A stretch of 64,000 nt of DNA from an uncultured delta proteobacterium (GTDB lineage Bacteria > Myxococcota_A > Polyangia > Fen-1088), in NCBI GenBank assembly GCA_963796685.1, contig CAWCMR010000018.1:29288-93287 (forward strand), in the 5' to 3' direction. Shown here one piece after another: positions 45,659 to 58,183 of the stretch (position 1 is its first letter; each line of letters begins with the position of its first letter). The notes below the pieces were generated by a model. The model was not told the origin of the DNA. It searched no databases and worked only from the letters and a program-made list of their open reading frames with translations. Made by a program: the position numbers and the translations under genes.

Positions 45659-46811
45659 CTAGGGTGCGTAGTCGCCCTTCCACAGCCGCGCAAGGAATTC
45701 AGCCACGGGCAAGATGTCGATGCCGTCCTGGGTGCGGCGCGCTCGTGCCTCGGTACAGACGCAGACAAGCTTCTTGACGGAGGGTTGATCTGCGCGCAGA
45801 GCGCGCAAGCCGCCCAAATGGGTGTCGGCGACGTGCGCGGTGGATTTGACCTCGATGCCGACGGCCGCGTCGCCGACCACGAAGTCCACCTCGATGCCAG
45901 AGGCCGTCCGCCAATAGGCTATGCGGAGATCGGGCACATGGTAGGCGGCGAAGGCGGAGAGCTCGTGAAAGATCCAATTCTTCGAGCGCCTTGCCGAACA
46001 GCTCGGAGCGCGGCTCGATGCATCCCCGTCGCGCCAGCGTGTTCACCACGCCAACATCGGCGAAGTAGAATTTGCGCGCCTGGATCATGCGACGCTTGGG
46101 TCGCTTGGTGTAGGCGGGCAAATAGCGCCCAAGTAGGGTGTCGACCAAAATTTGGAAATACTCGCGTACGGCGGGGGCTGAGACACCACACTCGCGGGCG
46201 ATGTTGGCGCTGTTCACGAGCTCGGTGTCGGCAAGAGCGGCCGCATTGAGGAAATCCGCGAAAGCCGGCAGGTTGCGCACCAGTCCCTCCGCCGCGACTT
46301 CCTCTTTCAGGTAGTCGTCGACGTAGGCCGCAAGCAGCCGGCCGGATGACGCCGAAAGGTAGTGGCGAGGCAACCCGCCCTGGTTGAGCGCGCACAGCAG
46401 TTGGAATTCTCGGCCCAGCTCTTGCGAGACGAATCCGTGCAACTCGTAGCGGACCGCCCGACCACCGAGGAGGTTGGCGTGGCCGCGCCGCAACTTCCGG
46501 GCACTCGATCCGCACAGGCCAAAGACGATGCCGCGATTCTCGATGAGCCAGTGGATCTCGTCGAGAAGCAGCGGCAACTTCTGCACTTCGTCGACGATGA
46601 CCGGCCCTGTGGGTGGCGTGGCCGAGAGCTCCTCGCGCAGTAAGGCCGGTTGCCGCAGATAGCGCATGAACACGTCGGTCTTGAGAAGGTCGATCCATGT
46701 GGCCGACGGGTAGGTGGCGTGTAGAAGCGCGCTCTTACCCACCTGACGTGGCCCCCACAGGAAGAAGGTCTGTCCGGGGCGGGATTCGAGAGCCAGACTA
46801 CGAGAAATCAT
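45659..46811 (-). CDS. AAA_14 ATPase with DUF4143 domain, +1 frameshift at ~45981
   Basis: GPRQVGKS, VDEVQ, GSS, KFYFADVG, YWRT..EVDFV..IEVK. CTTCGAG->CTCGAG restores ..ALENWIFHEL.., 383 aa. Confidence 0.88.
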
Positions 46812-52887: not shown

Positions 52888-53379
52888 CTAGGAGCAGGTT
52901 GCTCCGGCGTCCGACTGGCAGGCCTCGGGCACGGCCGGGCCCACGGAAGCCGAGAAGAAGTCCTTACACAGGCAAAGCTTCGTGCAGCACAGCTTGCCCT
53001 CGCCAAAAGGGATCGCGCAAGTGAACCCCTTCATGCACCGTGTGTCGTGGGGATTGCTGAAATCCCGGGTCTGACCGTTGCAATCGCTGTCCGAGTTGCA
53101 CCGAACGGTGCAGTACGGACCGGTGGTCAGCTCGCTCGATACGCCGGGCTGTACGGCCGGCTTGGTGCAGATCCCACTTGGGCAGTCGCGTGAATCGACG
53201 GTGTAGGCCGCCTGCAGCGGACTGGCATCGAAGGTGATGTCGCACGTCCGCCCGATGGCCTTGTCCTCACATCCGGATGCTCCGACCAGGAGGGCGAGGA
53301 ACAGTGGTGCGGACCAAGCGAGCCGCCCGGCCATGGGGCGAGGCTTGCGGTCTGCGGTGCGGGCGTAGTGGAACATCAA
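52888..53379 (-). CDS. Cys-rich lipoprotein, CglC-like
   Basis: Lipobox ASGC; IGRTC, DCPSGIC, YCTVRCNSDSDC, KLCLCKD; start may be ATG 53334. Confidence 0.65.
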   Translation of the reverse strand: MMFHYARTADRKPRPMAGRLAWSAPLFLALLVGASGCEDKAIGRTCDITFDASPLQAAYTVDSRDCPSGICTKPAVQPGVSSELTTGPYCTVRCNSDSDCNGQTRDFSNPHDTRCMKGFTCAIPFGEGKLCCTKLCLCKDFFSASVGPAVPEACQSDAGATCS

Positions 53380-53473: not shown

Positions 53474-54526
53474 CTAGCGTGCTTTGGCCAGAAGCGTCGC
53501 CGCGCCGAGGAGCATATCCTCGGTTTCTTCCCAACCGATGCAGCTGTCGGTGATGGATACGCCGTATTTCAGCGGCACGCCCTGCATCCAAGTTTGCTTG
53601 CCGGCGAAGAGATTGCTTTCGATCATGACCCCTAGGATCGCCTTTTGCCCGCTCGCGAAATTCTGCACGACTTCGGCGAAGACCGATCCCTGCTTGGTGT
53701 GATCCTTTCCGGAGTTGTCGTGCGAGCAATCCACCATCACCCCCCGCACCAGGCCCTCGTCGCCGACCGCCTTGGCCGCGATGGCGATGTCCTCGGGATG
53801 GTAGTTGGTGCCCGAGGTACCCCCGCGCAAGACGATATGCGCGTCCTCGTTGCCGAGGGTTTTGACCACCGCCGATATGCCGTCGGAGTTGATGCCCAGA
53901 AAAGCGTGCGCGTGACGAGCCGACATCATGGCGTTGATGGCGTTTTGCAGCGCCCCGTCGGTGCTGTTCTTGAAGCCGACGGGCATGGACAACCCGCTGG
54001 CCATTTGTCGGTGGACCTGGCTTTCCGTGGTGCGCGCGCCGATGGCGGCCCACGAAACCATGTCGGAAAGATAGTGTGGGACAACCGTGTCCAGGAACTC
54101 CGTCGCGCAAGGCAGGCCGAGGGCGGCGATGCGCAGCAGGACCTTGCGCGCCAGGGACAGGCCGTCGGAGATCTCGCACGAGCCATCGAGGTGCGGGTCG
54201 CTGACCAGTCCCTTCCATCCCACCACTGTGCGTGGCTTCTCGAAGTAGGTCCGCATGACGACGAGCAGGTGTTCTTGCGTCGCGGCGGCGACATTCTTGA
54301 GCCGCTGCGCGTAGGCAAACGCCGCCTCGGGATCGTGAATCGAGCACGGTCCGACCACGACCATGAGCCGGCGCTTGTCTTGCCCGTGAATCATCGCCGA
54401 GATGGCGGCACGGCTCGCGCGCACCATTTCACGGATCTCTTCGGTCGGAGGCAGCTCTTCTTCGAGCTGGCGGGGCGTGACGAGGGGCGCGAACTCGGCG
54501 ATGCGTAGGTTCTTGGTCTGCAACAT
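53474..54526 (-). CDS. DAHP synthase class I-alpha (AroF/G/H type)
   Basis: VVGPCSIHD, RTYFEKPRT..GWKG, IGARTTESQVHR, VDCSHDNS, SITDSC. Confidence 0.97.
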   Translation of the reverse strand: MLQTKNLRIAEFAPLVTPRQLEEELPPTEEIREMVRASRAAISAMIHGQDKRRLMVVVGPCSIHDPEAAFAYAQRLKNVAAATQEHLLVVMRTYFEKPRTVVGWKGLVSDPHLDGSCEISDGLSLARKVLLRIAALGLPCATEFLDTVVPHYLSDMVSWAAIGARTTESQVHRQMASGLSMPVGFKNSTDGALQNAINAMMSARHAHAFLGINSDGISAVVKTLGNEDAHIVLRGGTSGTNYHPEDIAIAAKAVGDEGLVRGVMVDCSHDNSGKDHTKQGSVFAEVVQNFASGQKAILGVMIESNLFAGKQTWMQGVPLKYGVSITDSCIGWEETEDMLLGAATLLAKAR

Positions 54527-54543
54527 GGGAGCTTCCTTTTCCG

Positions 54544-54580
54544 AAAAACGAAAAAGGCCCTGAGGGTTGCTCAGGGCCTT
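54544..54580 (-). terminator. Attenuator terminator
   Basis: Minus strand AAGGCCCTGAG-caacc-CTCAGGGCCTT-TTTCGTTTTT, just upstream of the DAHP synthase RBS. Confidence 0.9.
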
Positions 54581-54604
54581 GGATGACTGCGATGCAAGCG
54601 TTGC

Positions 54605-54679
54605 TTAGGCGAGTCCCCACGGCCCTGGCTTCCACCAGGTATAGCAAAAATAGCCGAAGAACGCGGGGTGACGCTGCAT
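54605..54679 (-). CDS. Aromatic-rich leader peptide MQRHPAFFGYFCYTWWKPGPWGLA
   Basis: 24 aa with 3 Phe, 2 Tyr and 3 Trp, between the promoter and the terminator; below the ORF-track cutoff. Confidence 0.85.
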   Translation of the reverse strand: MQRHPAFFGYFCYTWWKPGPWGLA

Positions 54680-54691
54680 GGGAACCCGGCT

Positions 54692-54719
54692 ACGTTACCA
54701 CGTGCTCGGGCGCGGTCAA
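54692..54719 (-). promoter_or_regulatory. Sigma-70-type promoter of the leader-DAHP synthase unit
   Basis: TTGACC-N16-TAACGT with an extended -10 TG. Confidence 0.65.
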
Positions 54720-54728
54720 CTGGCGACA

Positions 54729-55772
54729 TCAGTCCGATTCGGGAAGCTCCTCGGCCAGACCGGTTTCCCGGCGTACGAAGTAGTCGACCACCAACCCCTC
54801 CTTGAGCGCGCTTTCGCAGATGAGCGCGTGCTCGTGTCCGACGAGCTCGAGCAGGGTGCGCAGCATGATCGTGCCAGGGACCACGGTGTCGGCCCGCATG
54901 GCCCCCACGCCCGGCATCGCGGCCCGCTCCGCCGGCGTGGCCGCCAGCAACCTCTGCTCGAGCGCACGTAGGTTGTCGAGCCTCAGCACCAGGTGACGGC
55001 CCATACCCTCGCCGGAGCGCCCGCGCGCATCCGCCACCTTCTCGGCATTACCCTCGGCCATGCGGGCCACTGCCAAGGCGGTACCCGAGGTGAAGGTGAC
55101 GAAATCGAAACCCACCTTGAGCATCTGGCGGACCGCGGGTTGAACCACGGCGCGAACACGGGTCTCGGCGGTCAGCAGCTCCTTGCGATCCGGCGGCTTT
55201 TCGAAGTTGCACAGCTCGCGCAGGCGCAGCACGCCCGTGCGCAGCGAGGTGGCAAACAGACAGTCCTTGATATCGCCCACCAGGGCCTTGATCGAGCCGC
55301 CGCCGACGTCGACCAGCGCGAATTTTCCCGCGCCGAGGTCGAGAGCCTGGCGCGCGCCCCAATAGATGAGGGTGGCTTCCTTGACCGGGTCCAGCACCTC
55401 CACCGAAAGCCCGACCTCGCGCGCCACCGTGTGCACGAAGTCCGAGCCGTTGCGGGCCTCGCGAATCGCGCTGGTGGCCACCGCCACCGTGCTCTCCGGC
55501 GCGAAGCCCTCGGCAATCTTGCGCAACTTGATGAGCCCGTCGAGCCCGCGCTGAAAGGAAGAGAAGGGAATGAATCCCTCGCGCAGGGACTCCTCGCCCA
55601 AGCGGACCATCTCCTGACCGCGCGCCAATTCGACCAGGCCGCCCGCTCCGTCGGATTCGGCGACCAGCAGGTGAAACGAGTTGGATCCCAGGTCGTAGGC
55701 GGCCACGCGGGGGCGATTTCCCCGCTGCTCCTCCGTGGAGGCGCCACCGCGCAAGAACTTCAGTCCGGGCAT
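54729..55772 (-). CDS. Ppx/GppA phosphatase (short form, no HD domain)
   Basis: DLGSNSFHL, VRLG, VATSAIREARN, DVGGGS, RAD, LKEG. Confidence 0.9.
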   Translation of the reverse strand: MPGLKFLRGGASTEEQRGNRPRVAAYDLGSNSFHLLVAESDGAGGLVELARGQEMVRLGEESLREGFIPFSSFQRGLDGLIKLRKIAEGFAPESTVAVATSAIREARNGSDFVHTVAREVGLSVEVLDPVKEATLIYWGARQALDLGAGKFALVDVGGGSIKALVGDIKDCLFATSLRTGVLRLRELCNFEKPPDRKELLTAETRVRAVVQPAVRQMLKVGFDFVTFTSGTALAVARMAEGNAEKVADARGRSGEGMGRHLVLRLDNLRALEQRLLAATPAERAAMPGVGAMRADTVVPGTIMLRTLLELVGHEHALICESALKEGLVVDYFVRRETGLAEELPESD

Positions 55773-55813
55773 GGGCGAGTTTGTATCACCGCCCGGCGGC
55801 GATGCGAGCCCCA

Positions 55814-58183
55814 TCAGTGCGAATTCTTCCACGCAATGCGCTGCAGGAAATCCCGGGCGCGCAGCCGGTCAGCCTCGCGCTCGGCGTGCTCGGCGAGCCA
55901 GGTATACGCCGTGCGGGCGGTGACGAGGTCGCCTGCCAGATAGGCGGATTCGCCGAGCAGGCGACGGCACTCTTTGAAAAAGAGGGGGTCGAGGGGAAGC
56001 GGCTTGCCACCGCCGGCGAGGGGACAAGCCTCGGCCAGTTGGGGCATTGCGAGCGTCGCATCGCGCCCGGCCAGTTGTCGACCGACGAGGTAGGGGCCCA
56101 GAGCCTCGTCGGGGAACTGGCGCGCGAAGTCGGTGACGAGGTACACGACGAGCCCGGCGTCGAGAGGGCGACCGCGCTCGTCACCGAAGAGGACGCGCCC
56201 AAGGGTTGCTCGCGCCTTCTCGTCCGCGAGCGCGCGCAGCTTGGCCCTGGCCGTCCGCACCTCACCATCCTCGGTGGCGGCCTGCTCGACCTGGACGAGC
56301 GCAGCCCGCGCCTCGGCCAGGCGCCCGGCGCGGAAGTCGATGCCGGCTTCTAGCGCGGCGGCGCGCTCACGCAAGGGACGGGTCAGCGTGCCCGAATCCT
56401 CTGCCGCGGCGAGGGTGGCGAGGGCCCGGTCGGCCTCGCCCGCCGCCACCTGTGCCTCGGCGAGATCCAGGCGAAACGTCGGTTCGCCCGGATCGTCGGC
56501 GCACGCGCTCGACAAGAGCGCGACCGAGTCGCCTGGCGCTGTCCTCAGTCGGCTGCGCGCCTCGGACACCCGCGCGGCCAGCTCGCGCGCGCAGACCTTG
56601 TGGAAGATCGCCGGGCGGCGGAAGGTCTCTTCGGCTTCGGCGAGGCCGCTCGGGTCGAGCGGCAAGGTGGAGAGAAACGCCCGCCAGTCCTTTTCCAGCG
56701 ACGTCAGGTCGCGTCCGTACACGCGCGGAAAATCGCCGGCCGAGCGGTAGAGCGCGCGCAGCTTCTCCGCGCCGAAGCGGTCGAGGAGAAAGCGGCAGAA
56801 CGATCCGGCGATGGTATAGGCGCGTGGGCCCGACTCGAAGGTGAAACCCGCGCCGAGCGCACGCCGGAGCTCGGGCGCCTTGCCGAGCGCGAGCATGGCC
56901 GCGGCCTCCTGGTGCAGGGTCGAGCGCCCCTCGGGGTCGTCGAAGTCGGCCGCCTCGGCCACGCCCTCGACCAGCCCGCTGGCCAGGGTGGGCCAGGGGA
57001 TCGGTCCCACGAAATGCCAGGCCAGCGACACGCCGAACAGCGGGTCGCCGAACGCCGACGCGAACACGTGGGCCAGCTCGTGGCGCAGATGCTGTGCGGG
57101 GAAGCGGTCGGCTTGCATGAAGATCTCCCGCGTCCACGGCTTGGCATAGAGCGTGTTTCCCGCGCCCACAGCATCCTTCTTTGCGGCCGCCGAAGGGAAT
57201 CGATACACGGTGATGGGTAGCCGCGGCTCGACGCCGAGGATGTGCACCAGTTGCTGGTAGCGGAACTCCAGATCCTGCTCGGCGAGGCCGATGTCGGCAT
57301 CGCTCTCCGCCGCAGGATCGTTGTACAGGACGAAGTGCCGCGTGCGTGTCTCGCGTGGCAACAGCCGTTCCAGGTCGGCGCGGCTGACCTCGAATCCGAG
57401 CGCGCCGCGCGCCTCGAACCAAGCCGCGGAAGCGGCGACCAGCGCCAGGGCGATGATTCCTCGCCGCCATGTGCGTACAAGGCCGGCAAGGGGGCGCAAG
57501 GTCAGGCGCAAGCCATGGGGTGACTCGCGGCACAGCCATTGGGCCAGAACGATGGCGGTGGCGAGCCAGGTCAGGTTGGCCAGTCGGAACCACAGAAGCC
57601 GCAGCGGGGGTCGCAGCGCCTCGTCGTAGATGGGCCCAGGGAAGAATCCGGCGAACGGATCGTAGGCGAAGACGGCAGGGTCGCGATACAGCCGCACGAG
57701 CGCCCAGACCACGGAAATCACGGGCAGAGCGAAGGCCGCCAACCTGCCGCTGCGACGGCCGGGAATGGCGCAGGAGATGGCGGCGCCCGTGCCCGCCGCA
57801 AAGGCTCCCGTGGACACGGGCAAGAGCGCGAAGAAGGCAAGCCCCGCGTCGACATTGCAGTTTTGCACGCGCAGGGCGTTGGCCAGGGAGAGCAGGAGGG
57901 GCAGCACGAGGATCGCCCAGGTGGCCACGACGGCCTTGGCCGCGACTTGCACGGGCGAAACCGGGCGCCCGCTTCGCCGGGCCGCGCTGACGGTGCCATG
58001 GCCGATATCGACCCCGGCCAGCGCGGTAAGAAGGCCGATGGCGAAGGCAAAGTCGAAGCCGAGCACGTTGAAAAGCGGCACGAAGTCGAGCAATGCAGCA
58101 AGCAGAACGAGCGCGCCCGCCCAAAAGAGCGTCCGCCAGCCGTAACGAATGTTGATCCAGGCCACCGTGCGTGCGAGGCTCAT
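55814..58183 (-). CDS. Multi-TM protein with zincin-like (HExxH) domain and TPR-like C-terminus
   Basis: About 7 TM segments; LRHELAHVF..EGVAEA; helical repeats. Confidence 0.7.
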   Translation of the reverse strand: MSLARTVAWINIRYGWRTLFWAGALVLLAALLDFVPLFNVLGFDFAFAIGLLTALAGVDIGHGTVSAARRSGRPVSPVQVAAKAVVATWAILVLPLLLSLANALRVQNCNVDAGLAFFALLPVSTGAFAAGTGAAISCAIPGRRSGRLAAFALPVISVVWALVRLYRDPAVFAYDPFAGFFPGPIYDEALRPPLRLLWFRLANLTWLATAIVLAQWLCRESPHGLRLTLRPLAGLVRTWRRGIIALALVAASAAWFEARGALGFEVSRADLERLLPRETRTRHFVLYNDPAAESDADIGLAEQDLEFRYQQLVHILGVEPRLPITVYRFPSAAAKKDAVGAGNTLYAKPWTREIFMQADRFPAQHLRHELAHVFASAFGDPLFGVSLAWHFVGPIPWPTLASGLVEGVAEAADFDDPEGRSTLHQEAAAMLALGKAPELRRALGAGFTFESGPRAYTIAGSFCRFLLDRFGAEKLRALYRSAGDFPRVYGRDLTSLEKDWRAFLSTLPLDPSGLAEAEETFRRPAIFHKVCARELAARVSEARSRLRTAPGDSVALLSSACADDPGEPTFRLDLAEAQVAAGEADRALATLAAAEDSGTLTRPLRERAAALEAGIDFRAGRLAEARAALVQVEQAATEDGEVRTARAKLRALADEKARATLGRVLFGDERGRPLDAGLVVYLVTDFARQFPDEALGPYLVGRQLAGRDATLAMPQLAEACPLAGGGKPLPLDPLFFKECRRLLGESAYLAGDLVTARTAYTWLAEHAEREADRLRARDFLQRIAWKNSH

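Follow-up and report, generated by a model that had tools for sequence, protein, structure and literature searches.

The aroR leader, which lies before aroF of Corynebacterium glutamicum, was reportedly described by Neshat et al. in 2014. According to the accessible excerpts of two papers it carries Phe-Tyr-Phe, works by ribosome stalling and responds to Phe, with no response to Tyr (PMC11802643, PMC4046766). Going by these excerpts, attenuation of a DAHP synthase gene as such is already published. The sources cited for attenuation at aroF and aroH are said to be Camakaris 1980 and Zurawski 1981. The excerpt of PMC2659441 lists it as possible or proposed at aroF/aroH of E. coli and Shewanella. 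In the accessible part of PMC8632094, uORFC-13-1 before aroF of Acholeplasma is a uORF with an intrinsic terminator, predicted by comparative analysis with 24 representatives. The attenuators of E. coli trpL and pheL and of Shewanella leuA are described, likewise in excerpts, with a leader ORF that contains codons of the product (PMC11802643, PMC2659441).

A full-text literature search returned no report from the Myxococcota and no leader combining Phe, Tyr and Trp. This agrees with an earlier reading of the same DNA by a model that saw only the letters and open reading frames (here referred to as the sequence-only reading), which knew of no description in this phylum. Earlier attenuator surveys in subscription journals (Panina 2001, Vitreschak 2004, Lopatovskaya 2010) may include cases from delta-proteobacteria, and the supplements of PMC8632094, PMC11109978 and PMC2965389 could list the motif. 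No F/Y/W leader was present in the accessible parts of PMC4833913, PMC11109978, PMC2965389, PMC4448216 and PMC13236596.

The window, that is the whole stretch of DNA that was analyzed, comprises 64,000 nucleotides from an uncultured delta proteobacterium. It contains a gene for a DAHP synthase which is preceded by the following elements, given in the order of transcription:

54714..54719, minus strand: TTGACC, -35 hexamer of what is probably a sigma70-type promoter, TTGAC invariant in 13/13 genus genomes
54692..54700, minus strand: extended -10 element TG-n-TAACGT, with TG, TA and the final T invariant in 13/13
54605..54679, minus strand: leader ORF of 24 codons, MQRHPAFFGYFCYTWWKPGPWGLA, with conserved ATG and in-frame stop in 13/13
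54632..54661, minus strand: control codons F7 F8 Y10 F11 Y13 W15 W16; a modelled ribosome on F7-W15 would leave the antiterminator free
54624..54639, minus strand: protector hairpin (1:2), 6 bp over T14-W15-W16-K17-P18-G19, weak
54612..54627, minus strand: 5' arm of the antiterminator (segment 2), inside codons 18-23, indicated by frozen silent sites and covariation
54572..54588, minus strand: 3' arm of the antiterminator (segment 3), overlapping the 5' arm of the terminator, indicated by folding and covariation
54544..54580, minus strand: intrinsic terminator, an 11-bp stem (54580-54554) followed by U5-CG-U5, about -19.5 kcal/mol
54534..54538, minus strand: AAGGA resembling a Shine-Dalgarno sequence ahead of the DAHP synthase gene, in a stretch that is purine-rich in 13/13 genus rows
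53474..54526, minus strand: class Iα DAHP synthase, 350 aa (TIGR00034 467.6 bits, cut-off 173; PRK12755 487, cut-off 343)

The two promoter hexamers are 16 nt apart, with TAACGT at 54697-54692 and TG at 54700-54699, the extended -10 position. This is the promoter TTGACC-N16-TAACGT of the sequence-only reading; it is supported by conservation in 13/13 genus genomes, though a consensus promoter scan found none here and the -10 element agrees at only 3/6 positions. In the 13-row genus alignment the spacing is fixed in every genome while the spacer sequence varies. The leader ATG follows 12 nt after the -10 element (10-14 nt across the 13 genus genomes), so the leader's 5' UTR should be very short, an estimated 4-8 nt from a likewise putative transcription start. 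No obvious Shine-Dalgarno sequence for the leader ORF was found in the same alignment.

Eight of the 24 leader residues are aromatic (F7 F8 Y10 F11 Y13 W15 W16 W21, that is F3 Y2 W3), and seven of these fall in codons 7-16 in the order F-F-G-Y-F-C-Y-T-W-W, just as the sequence-only reading had counted. Such a density is rare: at least 7 F/Y/W in 10 codons occurred in 2 of the 34,225 small ATG ORFs (15-40 aa) of the genome, and among its 34 pairs of a uORF with a terminator only the DAHP synthase leader reached 7, the next best having 4. The other small ORF with this density (G000:C11 33160, minus strand) reads MRTPGNGCFACWADWWFFFSWASFG; no terminator was paired with it in the scan.

Folding of 54628-54566 gives the antiterminator as the structure of lowest energy (-29.2 kcal/mol, z -3.75, 0/200 shuffles as good). 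The arms of the antiterminator pair as first written (54627-54612 with 54588-54572) and are mutually exclusive with the terminator, whose 11-bp stem and U-runs were also read correctly. W15 ends 7 nt ahead of segment 2. The AAGGA lies outside the terminator, so control should act on transcription and not by hiding the ribosome site. The leader is single-copy in the genome according to a covariance-model search. It falls outside the curated Rfam families, the Trp, Phe, His, Leu and Thr leaders among them: the 5 Rfam matches at E<=10 in 53500-55500 were all far under the gathering score and none was a leader. On every computable feature except the protector and the promoter call the element would qualify as a classical leader-peptide attenuator. 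The trpL/pheL-type architecture ascribed to it is present with leader ORF, antiterminator and terminator, the protector being weak.

The nearest solved structures to the regulated enzyme were 6AGM and 1GG1, Tyr- and Phe-sensitive class Iα enzymes (E ~1e-110). The sequence-only reading had placed the control of DAHP synthase at the shikimate entry; the class Iα gene stood up, but it does not encode the sole entry enzyme, since the genome has another in a 678-aa fusion of chorismate mutase, prephenate dehydratase and class Iβ DAHP synthase (CM-PDT-class Iβ; L132:1471-3507, minus strand). Because of this fusion in the same genome, the attenuated class Iα gene is best read as an inducible second isozyme. 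Class Iβ was over cut-off in 10/12 relatives, with a partial match in an eleventh, and in 10/12 the match lay within open frames of ~680 aa or more.

No leader was found before trpE or the class Iβ fusion of this genome. TrpR (PF01371) and class II DAHP synthase (PF01474) were not found in the genome, which is 88.6% complete, and a search for TyrR with PF18024 gave 5 weak HTH matches. A Leu-rich leader with 6 Leu in 10 codons (L321:139-275; G000:C15, about 266038-266175, plus strand), a strong hairpin pair and a U-tailed terminator is located directly before 2-isopropylmalate synthase (PRK03739, leuA; fold z -6.35). It is a probable second attenuator, and leader-peptide control therefore appears to be in use in this genome.

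The gene upstream of the promoter is Ppx/GppA-like (exopolyphosphatase, window 54729-55832, minus strand; TIGR03706 below cut-off). It ends 10 nt before the -35 box without a terminator of its own, so its read-through would also meet the attenuator. On the 3' side of the DAHP synthase gene a Cys-rich lipoprotein-like ORF of 163 aa without NCBIfam match is present (window 52888-53379, minus strand); a similar ORF is found in that place in ~9/13 genus loci. Elsewhere in the window, an ATPase-like ORF (GPRQVGKS; 45699-46811, minus strand) has a frame that seems broken near its 3' end.

The DAHP synthase protein was present in 32/61 genomes searched. The leader ~150 nt upstream of the gene was found together with the terminator in 13/13 same-genus loci (protein identity 73-100%) and was absent at the 17 more distant loci examined (48-54%). 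The genes upstream of the 13 genus loci are of at least four kinds and are divergent in two genomes (L003, L006), which argues that the element belongs to the DAHP synthase gene. Elsewhere in this family, L014, L015, L017 and L022, which are from other genera, have two class Iα DAHP synthase genes in tandem; these are of a different clade and lack the leader.

Conservation of the uORF, which the sequence-only reading had named as a check, holds in 13/13 genus genomes with F, Y and W all retained. Invariant are the ATG, F7, F11, Y13, W15 and the in-frame stop. Changes at several of these codons are synonymous (F7 TTC 8/TTT 5; Y13 TAT 9/TAC 4; stop TAA 9/TAG 4), and the sole indel within the leader ORF is one whole codon (3 genomes). 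P18 is always CCA and G19 always GGG (13/13), that is, the silent sites of the antiterminator arm are frozen. At position 21, 6 of the 13 have W and the other 7 have R. The helices are 95-99% paired in the genus and the protector 100%; no helix showed two-sided pair changes within the 13 genus rows.

To look beyond the genus, a protein-based search gave 80 genome loci, 79 of which were examined (L122 was without upstream DNA). Five repeated genus genomes, 13 others had a related leader with terminator (3 from thermophilic cyanobacteria, 2 Binatia, 5 Myxococcota, 3 others), and 61 were without leader by the rule used, including all 45 Nitrospirota-group loci and L055. At L055 the absence is uninformative because an assembly gap (NN, near 2455) lies just upstream of the 79% identical DAHP synthase gene. 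L100 was entered by eye for its helices and has only one F and one W.

A pattern of the RNA alone, naming neither codons nor gene, matched at least 120 loci in metagenomes, of which 80 were examined. An aromatic uORF was present in 9/80, five times before a class Iα DAHP synthase, three times before class Iβ and once before a GxxExxY gene. The class Iβ-linked leaders (L136 and L202 with F, Y and W; L152 with only F) share the terminator scaffold and precede PRK08673-like genes. At L135:447-1032 a full F/Y/W leader with terminator is followed by a GxxExxY protein (TIGR04256) as first gene, where the fetched flank ends. In 4/80 loci (L149, L155, L177, L193) the same scaffold carries Ile-rich uORFs before threonine dehydratase/threonine ammonia-lyase-like genes, probably an Ile attenuator. 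The remaining 67/80 had neither an aromatic nor an Ile-rich uORF.

A covariance model built from 25 leaders found 9/150 phylum genomes at E<1e-6, one of them a training row. Within the taxonomic family it matched strongly in 12/12 genus genomes and in 2/11 genomes of one other genus, with no strong match in the other 65 family genomes. All 10 new model-found leaders (E<1e-6) precede a class Iα DAHP synthase. At the weaker matches (18 loci inspected from 20 phylum genomes with E between 4e-5 and 0.009; 7 family loci) the called downstream ORF was never DAHP synthase. One weak match, L291 (G083:C138:14095-14190, E 0.005), has a uORF with F4 W1 ending in R-P-G-P-A, but neither a clear terminator nor a following gene was called there. 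When the 199-nt leader was compared by BLAST with 400 phylum genomes, the best outside match had E 6.6e-7; of the six matches inspected, some were short and fell inside coding sequence, and the rest only resembled the terminator (three behind tRNA-like genes, one between two protein genes). The leader is too diverged for BLAST to be suitable for finding relatives.

In a quick tree of 71 proteins (38/46 Nitrospirota-group rows and duplicates left out), which informs on clustering only and not on the direction of transfer, a single clade of 45 rows (SH-aLRT 98) contains all 26 rows with a leader. Leaderless members are mixed in among them, so that 3-4 changes are needed. Other class Iα genes of the taxonomic family fall outside this clade. 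Within it, L067, L100 and L071 are possible decay stages of the leader: L067 has only a small terminator-like hairpin upstream of 2501, after an unrelated gene, L100:984-1135 retains both helices with one F and one W, and L071 is without leader.

Covarying stems, the other sequence check of the first reading, were found for both antiterminator and terminator in an alignment of 25 leaders (4/13 genus rows, 13 protein-found, 8/9 pattern-found). Compared with shuffles that ignore relatedness, the antiterminator core had 17 cells with two-sided change versus 7.8 and the terminator 19 versus 5.4, with 0/500 shuffles as high in either case. The terminator is 98% paired and 4/10 of its pairs show two-sided change. 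For both helices the covariation comes from distant rows, and for the antiterminator it is mostly that of one pair: columns 84/170 are A-U in 13, G-C in 10, G-U in 1 and unpaired in 1 of the 25. The same position flips jointly in segments 2, 3 and 4 (A-U in 13 rows, G-C in 10); the RNA search pattern had let these three switching bases vary independently. Across phyla the protector 1:2 is 83% paired with 16-19/500 shuffles as high and is the weakest-supported helix. Segment 2 is found in all three reading phases across phyla and is therefore kept as RNA.

Based on codons, conservation and folding, the element is very probably a ribosome-stalling, aromatic-sensing transcription attenuator before a class Iα DAHP synthase. 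Hardly less probable is the explanation as a whole, in which ribosome-mediated attenuation would raise this enzyme under shortage of Phe, Tyr or Trp. RNA polymerase would start a few bases before the leader ATG and a ribosome would follow on a presumably translated uORF. With charged tRNA-Phe, tRNA-Tyr and tRNA-Trp plentiful, it would pass W15/W16 and move onto segment 2 (codons 18-23). With segment 2 covered, the terminator could form and transcription would end ~30 nt short of the DAHP synthase gene. A lack of charge on any one of these tRNAs would make the ribosome wait at F7-W15, so that segment 2 could pair with segment 3 before segment 4 is made and no terminator would arise. Read-through would then add the class Iα enzyme to the CM-PDT-class Iβ fusion as a further isozyme. 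As the protector hairpin is weak in the genus, the switch would be a race for segment 2 and not a release from a strong 1:2 helix.

The ribosome was modelled by forcing the bases up to +11, +13 or +15 from the P-site codon, the footprint values used, to be unpaired. In the partial transcript up to the terminator loop, the predicted 2:3 helix is present for A-site positions as far as W15, reaches about half at W16 (+13) and is absent from K17 on. It reached P>=0.5 at some F, some Y and some W in 13/13 genus leaders with all three footprints and in 19-21 of 20-22 non-genus leaders. With the ribosome placed on the stop codon the model gave this helix in 0/35 leaders. In a ribosome-free partial transcript it is predicted to beat the protector in 13/13 genus leaders and to form in 12/22 others (P(2:3)<0.5 in 10/22), so in the genus the ribosome would have to cover segment 2 actively.

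At full-length equilibrium the modelled terminator exceeds 0.5 at every aromatic codon in most leaders; it fell below 0.5 at some F in 6/35, some Y in 6-9/33 and some W in 6-10/34. Since the terminator wins at equilibrium in most leaders, the switch would have to be kinetic, that is timing-dependent. The leader of the window is exceptional with a predicted equilibrium terminator P of 0.02-0.4 at F7-W15 for +11 and +13; at the +15 footprint its equilibrium fold terminates at W15.

How many amino acids are sensed is a separate question. F, Y and W all occur ahead of segment 2 in 43/45 leaders (genus 13/13, protein-found 12/13, pattern-found 8/9, model-found 10/10). When the pooled aromatic letters were reshuffled, 14.0 leaders with all three were expected against 21/23 found (one genus row and 22 others; p 1e-4), and 6.4 against 10/10 for the held-out model-found leaders (p 0.003); these p-values are overstated, because the leaders are homologues and were chosen either for their aromatic residues or through a model trained on rows of that kind. 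Natural variants place Trp codons 4 to 43 nt from segment 2. From codon content and modelling, we consider it rather likely that the leader answers to each of Phe, Tyr and Trp with a measurable response.

The main alternative is a sub-case of the attenuator, in which mainly Phe (or Phe and Tyr) is sensed and the W15 UGG is kept as 5' strand of the 1:2 hairpin, too near segment 2 to signal. W15 indeed sits in the protector stem, and 23/33 leaders have a Trp codon 4-9 nt ahead of segment 2. However, the protector is the least supported helix, and of the leaders that have no Trp in the last 9 nt before segment 2, 9/10 have one further upstream, versus 5/23 of the others (Fisher p 4e-4; 33 leaders, namely one genus row, 22 others and 10 new, with the 9-nt cut-off chosen after the data were seen, and with relatedness and the selection for aromatic content also inflating the value). 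Phe is the commonest aromatic codon (82/148), and C. glutamicum aroR shows a Phe response and no Tyr response in the accessible excerpt (PMC11802643); against this, Tyr is present in 43/45 leaders and Y13 changes synonymously. The sequence-only reading had cautioned that Trp15-16 lie close to the antiterminator and Trp21 inside it, so that the Trp response may differ. The modelled helix is allowed up to W15, and W16, with only about half of it at +13, is marginal as a sensor position; W21, which lies inside the arm and is Arg in 7/13, is predicted to be unable to signal and drops out as a sensor. Taken together we regard the mainly Phe-sensing sub-case as possible but unlikely.

A leader that works by something other than tRNA charge would be TnaC-like peptide arrest with a free aromatic metabolite, or an RNA controlled by a metabolite or protein. 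The pattern F-x-Y/F-x-W-x-x-P-G is conserved across phyla and P-G-P could itself slow ribosomes, but the aromatics differ greatly in order and number, and all three phases are represented for segment 2, which fits codon content plus RNA pairing better than a fixed peptide. F11 is TTT in 13/13 though TTT is the rarer Phe codon of the genome (4,240 vs 20,882). Stalling induced by the product would, however, switch a biosynthetic gene on when its product is plentiful, the wrong sign, and no Rfam family matches the leader. This mode of action is improbable.

That the hairpin merely terminates the upstream ppx-like transcript, with ORF and antiterminator present by chance, would fit the missing terminator of that gene 10 nt before the -35 box and the failed promoter scan, but it is largely refuted by antiterminator covariation, leader conservation and upstream genes that differ or are divergent (L003, L006) while the element follows the DAHP synthase gene across phyla, and is thus very improbable.

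For the aromatic-sensing attenuator, a wider statement is evenly balanced between holding and failing. In it, the leaders would form an undescribed family across phyla (Myxococcota, Binatia, thermophilic cyanobacteria, unassigned metagenome contigs) that truly takes three inputs, the charging of Phe-, Tyr- and Trp-tRNA, at the shikimate entry. The family would travel with one class Iα clade and have been lost or replaced several times, and its scaffold would be shared by unrelated class Iβ genes and, where the codons are for Ile, by threonine dehydratase. In the genus it would be translated without a Shine-Dalgarno sequence from a UTR of 4-8 nt, as the only aromatic attenuator found in the genome.

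If true, one short RNA would read all three aromatic end products at the first committed step, and classical attenuation would be extended to the Myxococcota. The mechanism itself is textbook and the surprise therefore moderate; this version is distinguished by the retention of all three codon types and the recurrence in several bacterial phyla. The family could serve as a test set for whether the presence of a codon suffices for sensing, which for Tyr in aroR it did not, and for the smallest distance that is possible between a stalled ribosome and an antiterminator. A pan-aromatic sensor of ~190 nt could also serve as a biosensor part.

Compared with the known systems, the element shares with E. 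coli trpL and pheL and Shewanella leuA the mutually exclusive 2:3 and 3:4 helices and the U-tailed terminator, as far as the excerpts describe them, and has a candidate counterpart of their 1:2 helix. While trpL and pheL, by the same excerpts, respond to one amino acid in terminal branches, the Myxococcota leader would act on the common entry step. Unlike these two, it has a weak protector, with the antiterminator predicted to form ribosome-free in 13/13 genus leaders, and no Shine-Dalgarno sequence. The proposals for aroF and aroH, as excerpted, also concern class Iα DAHP synthase genes, but with a single amino acid per isozyme. Acholeplasma uORFC-13-1 is predicted only and its U-run codes for at least one Phe; Tyr and Trp codons are not part of its description in the accessible text (PMC8632094). 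Closest is C. glutamicum aroR, according to its excerpts likewise an aromatic leader peptide on a DAHP synthase gene in an organism with a second DAHP synthase. It is set apart by its description there without Trp, whereas the 7 control codons of the Myxococcota leader include Phe, Tyr and Trp. The thrL and ilvL leaders are multivalent leaders of branched pathways, and with several amino acids in one leader the Myxococcota leader follows their logic.
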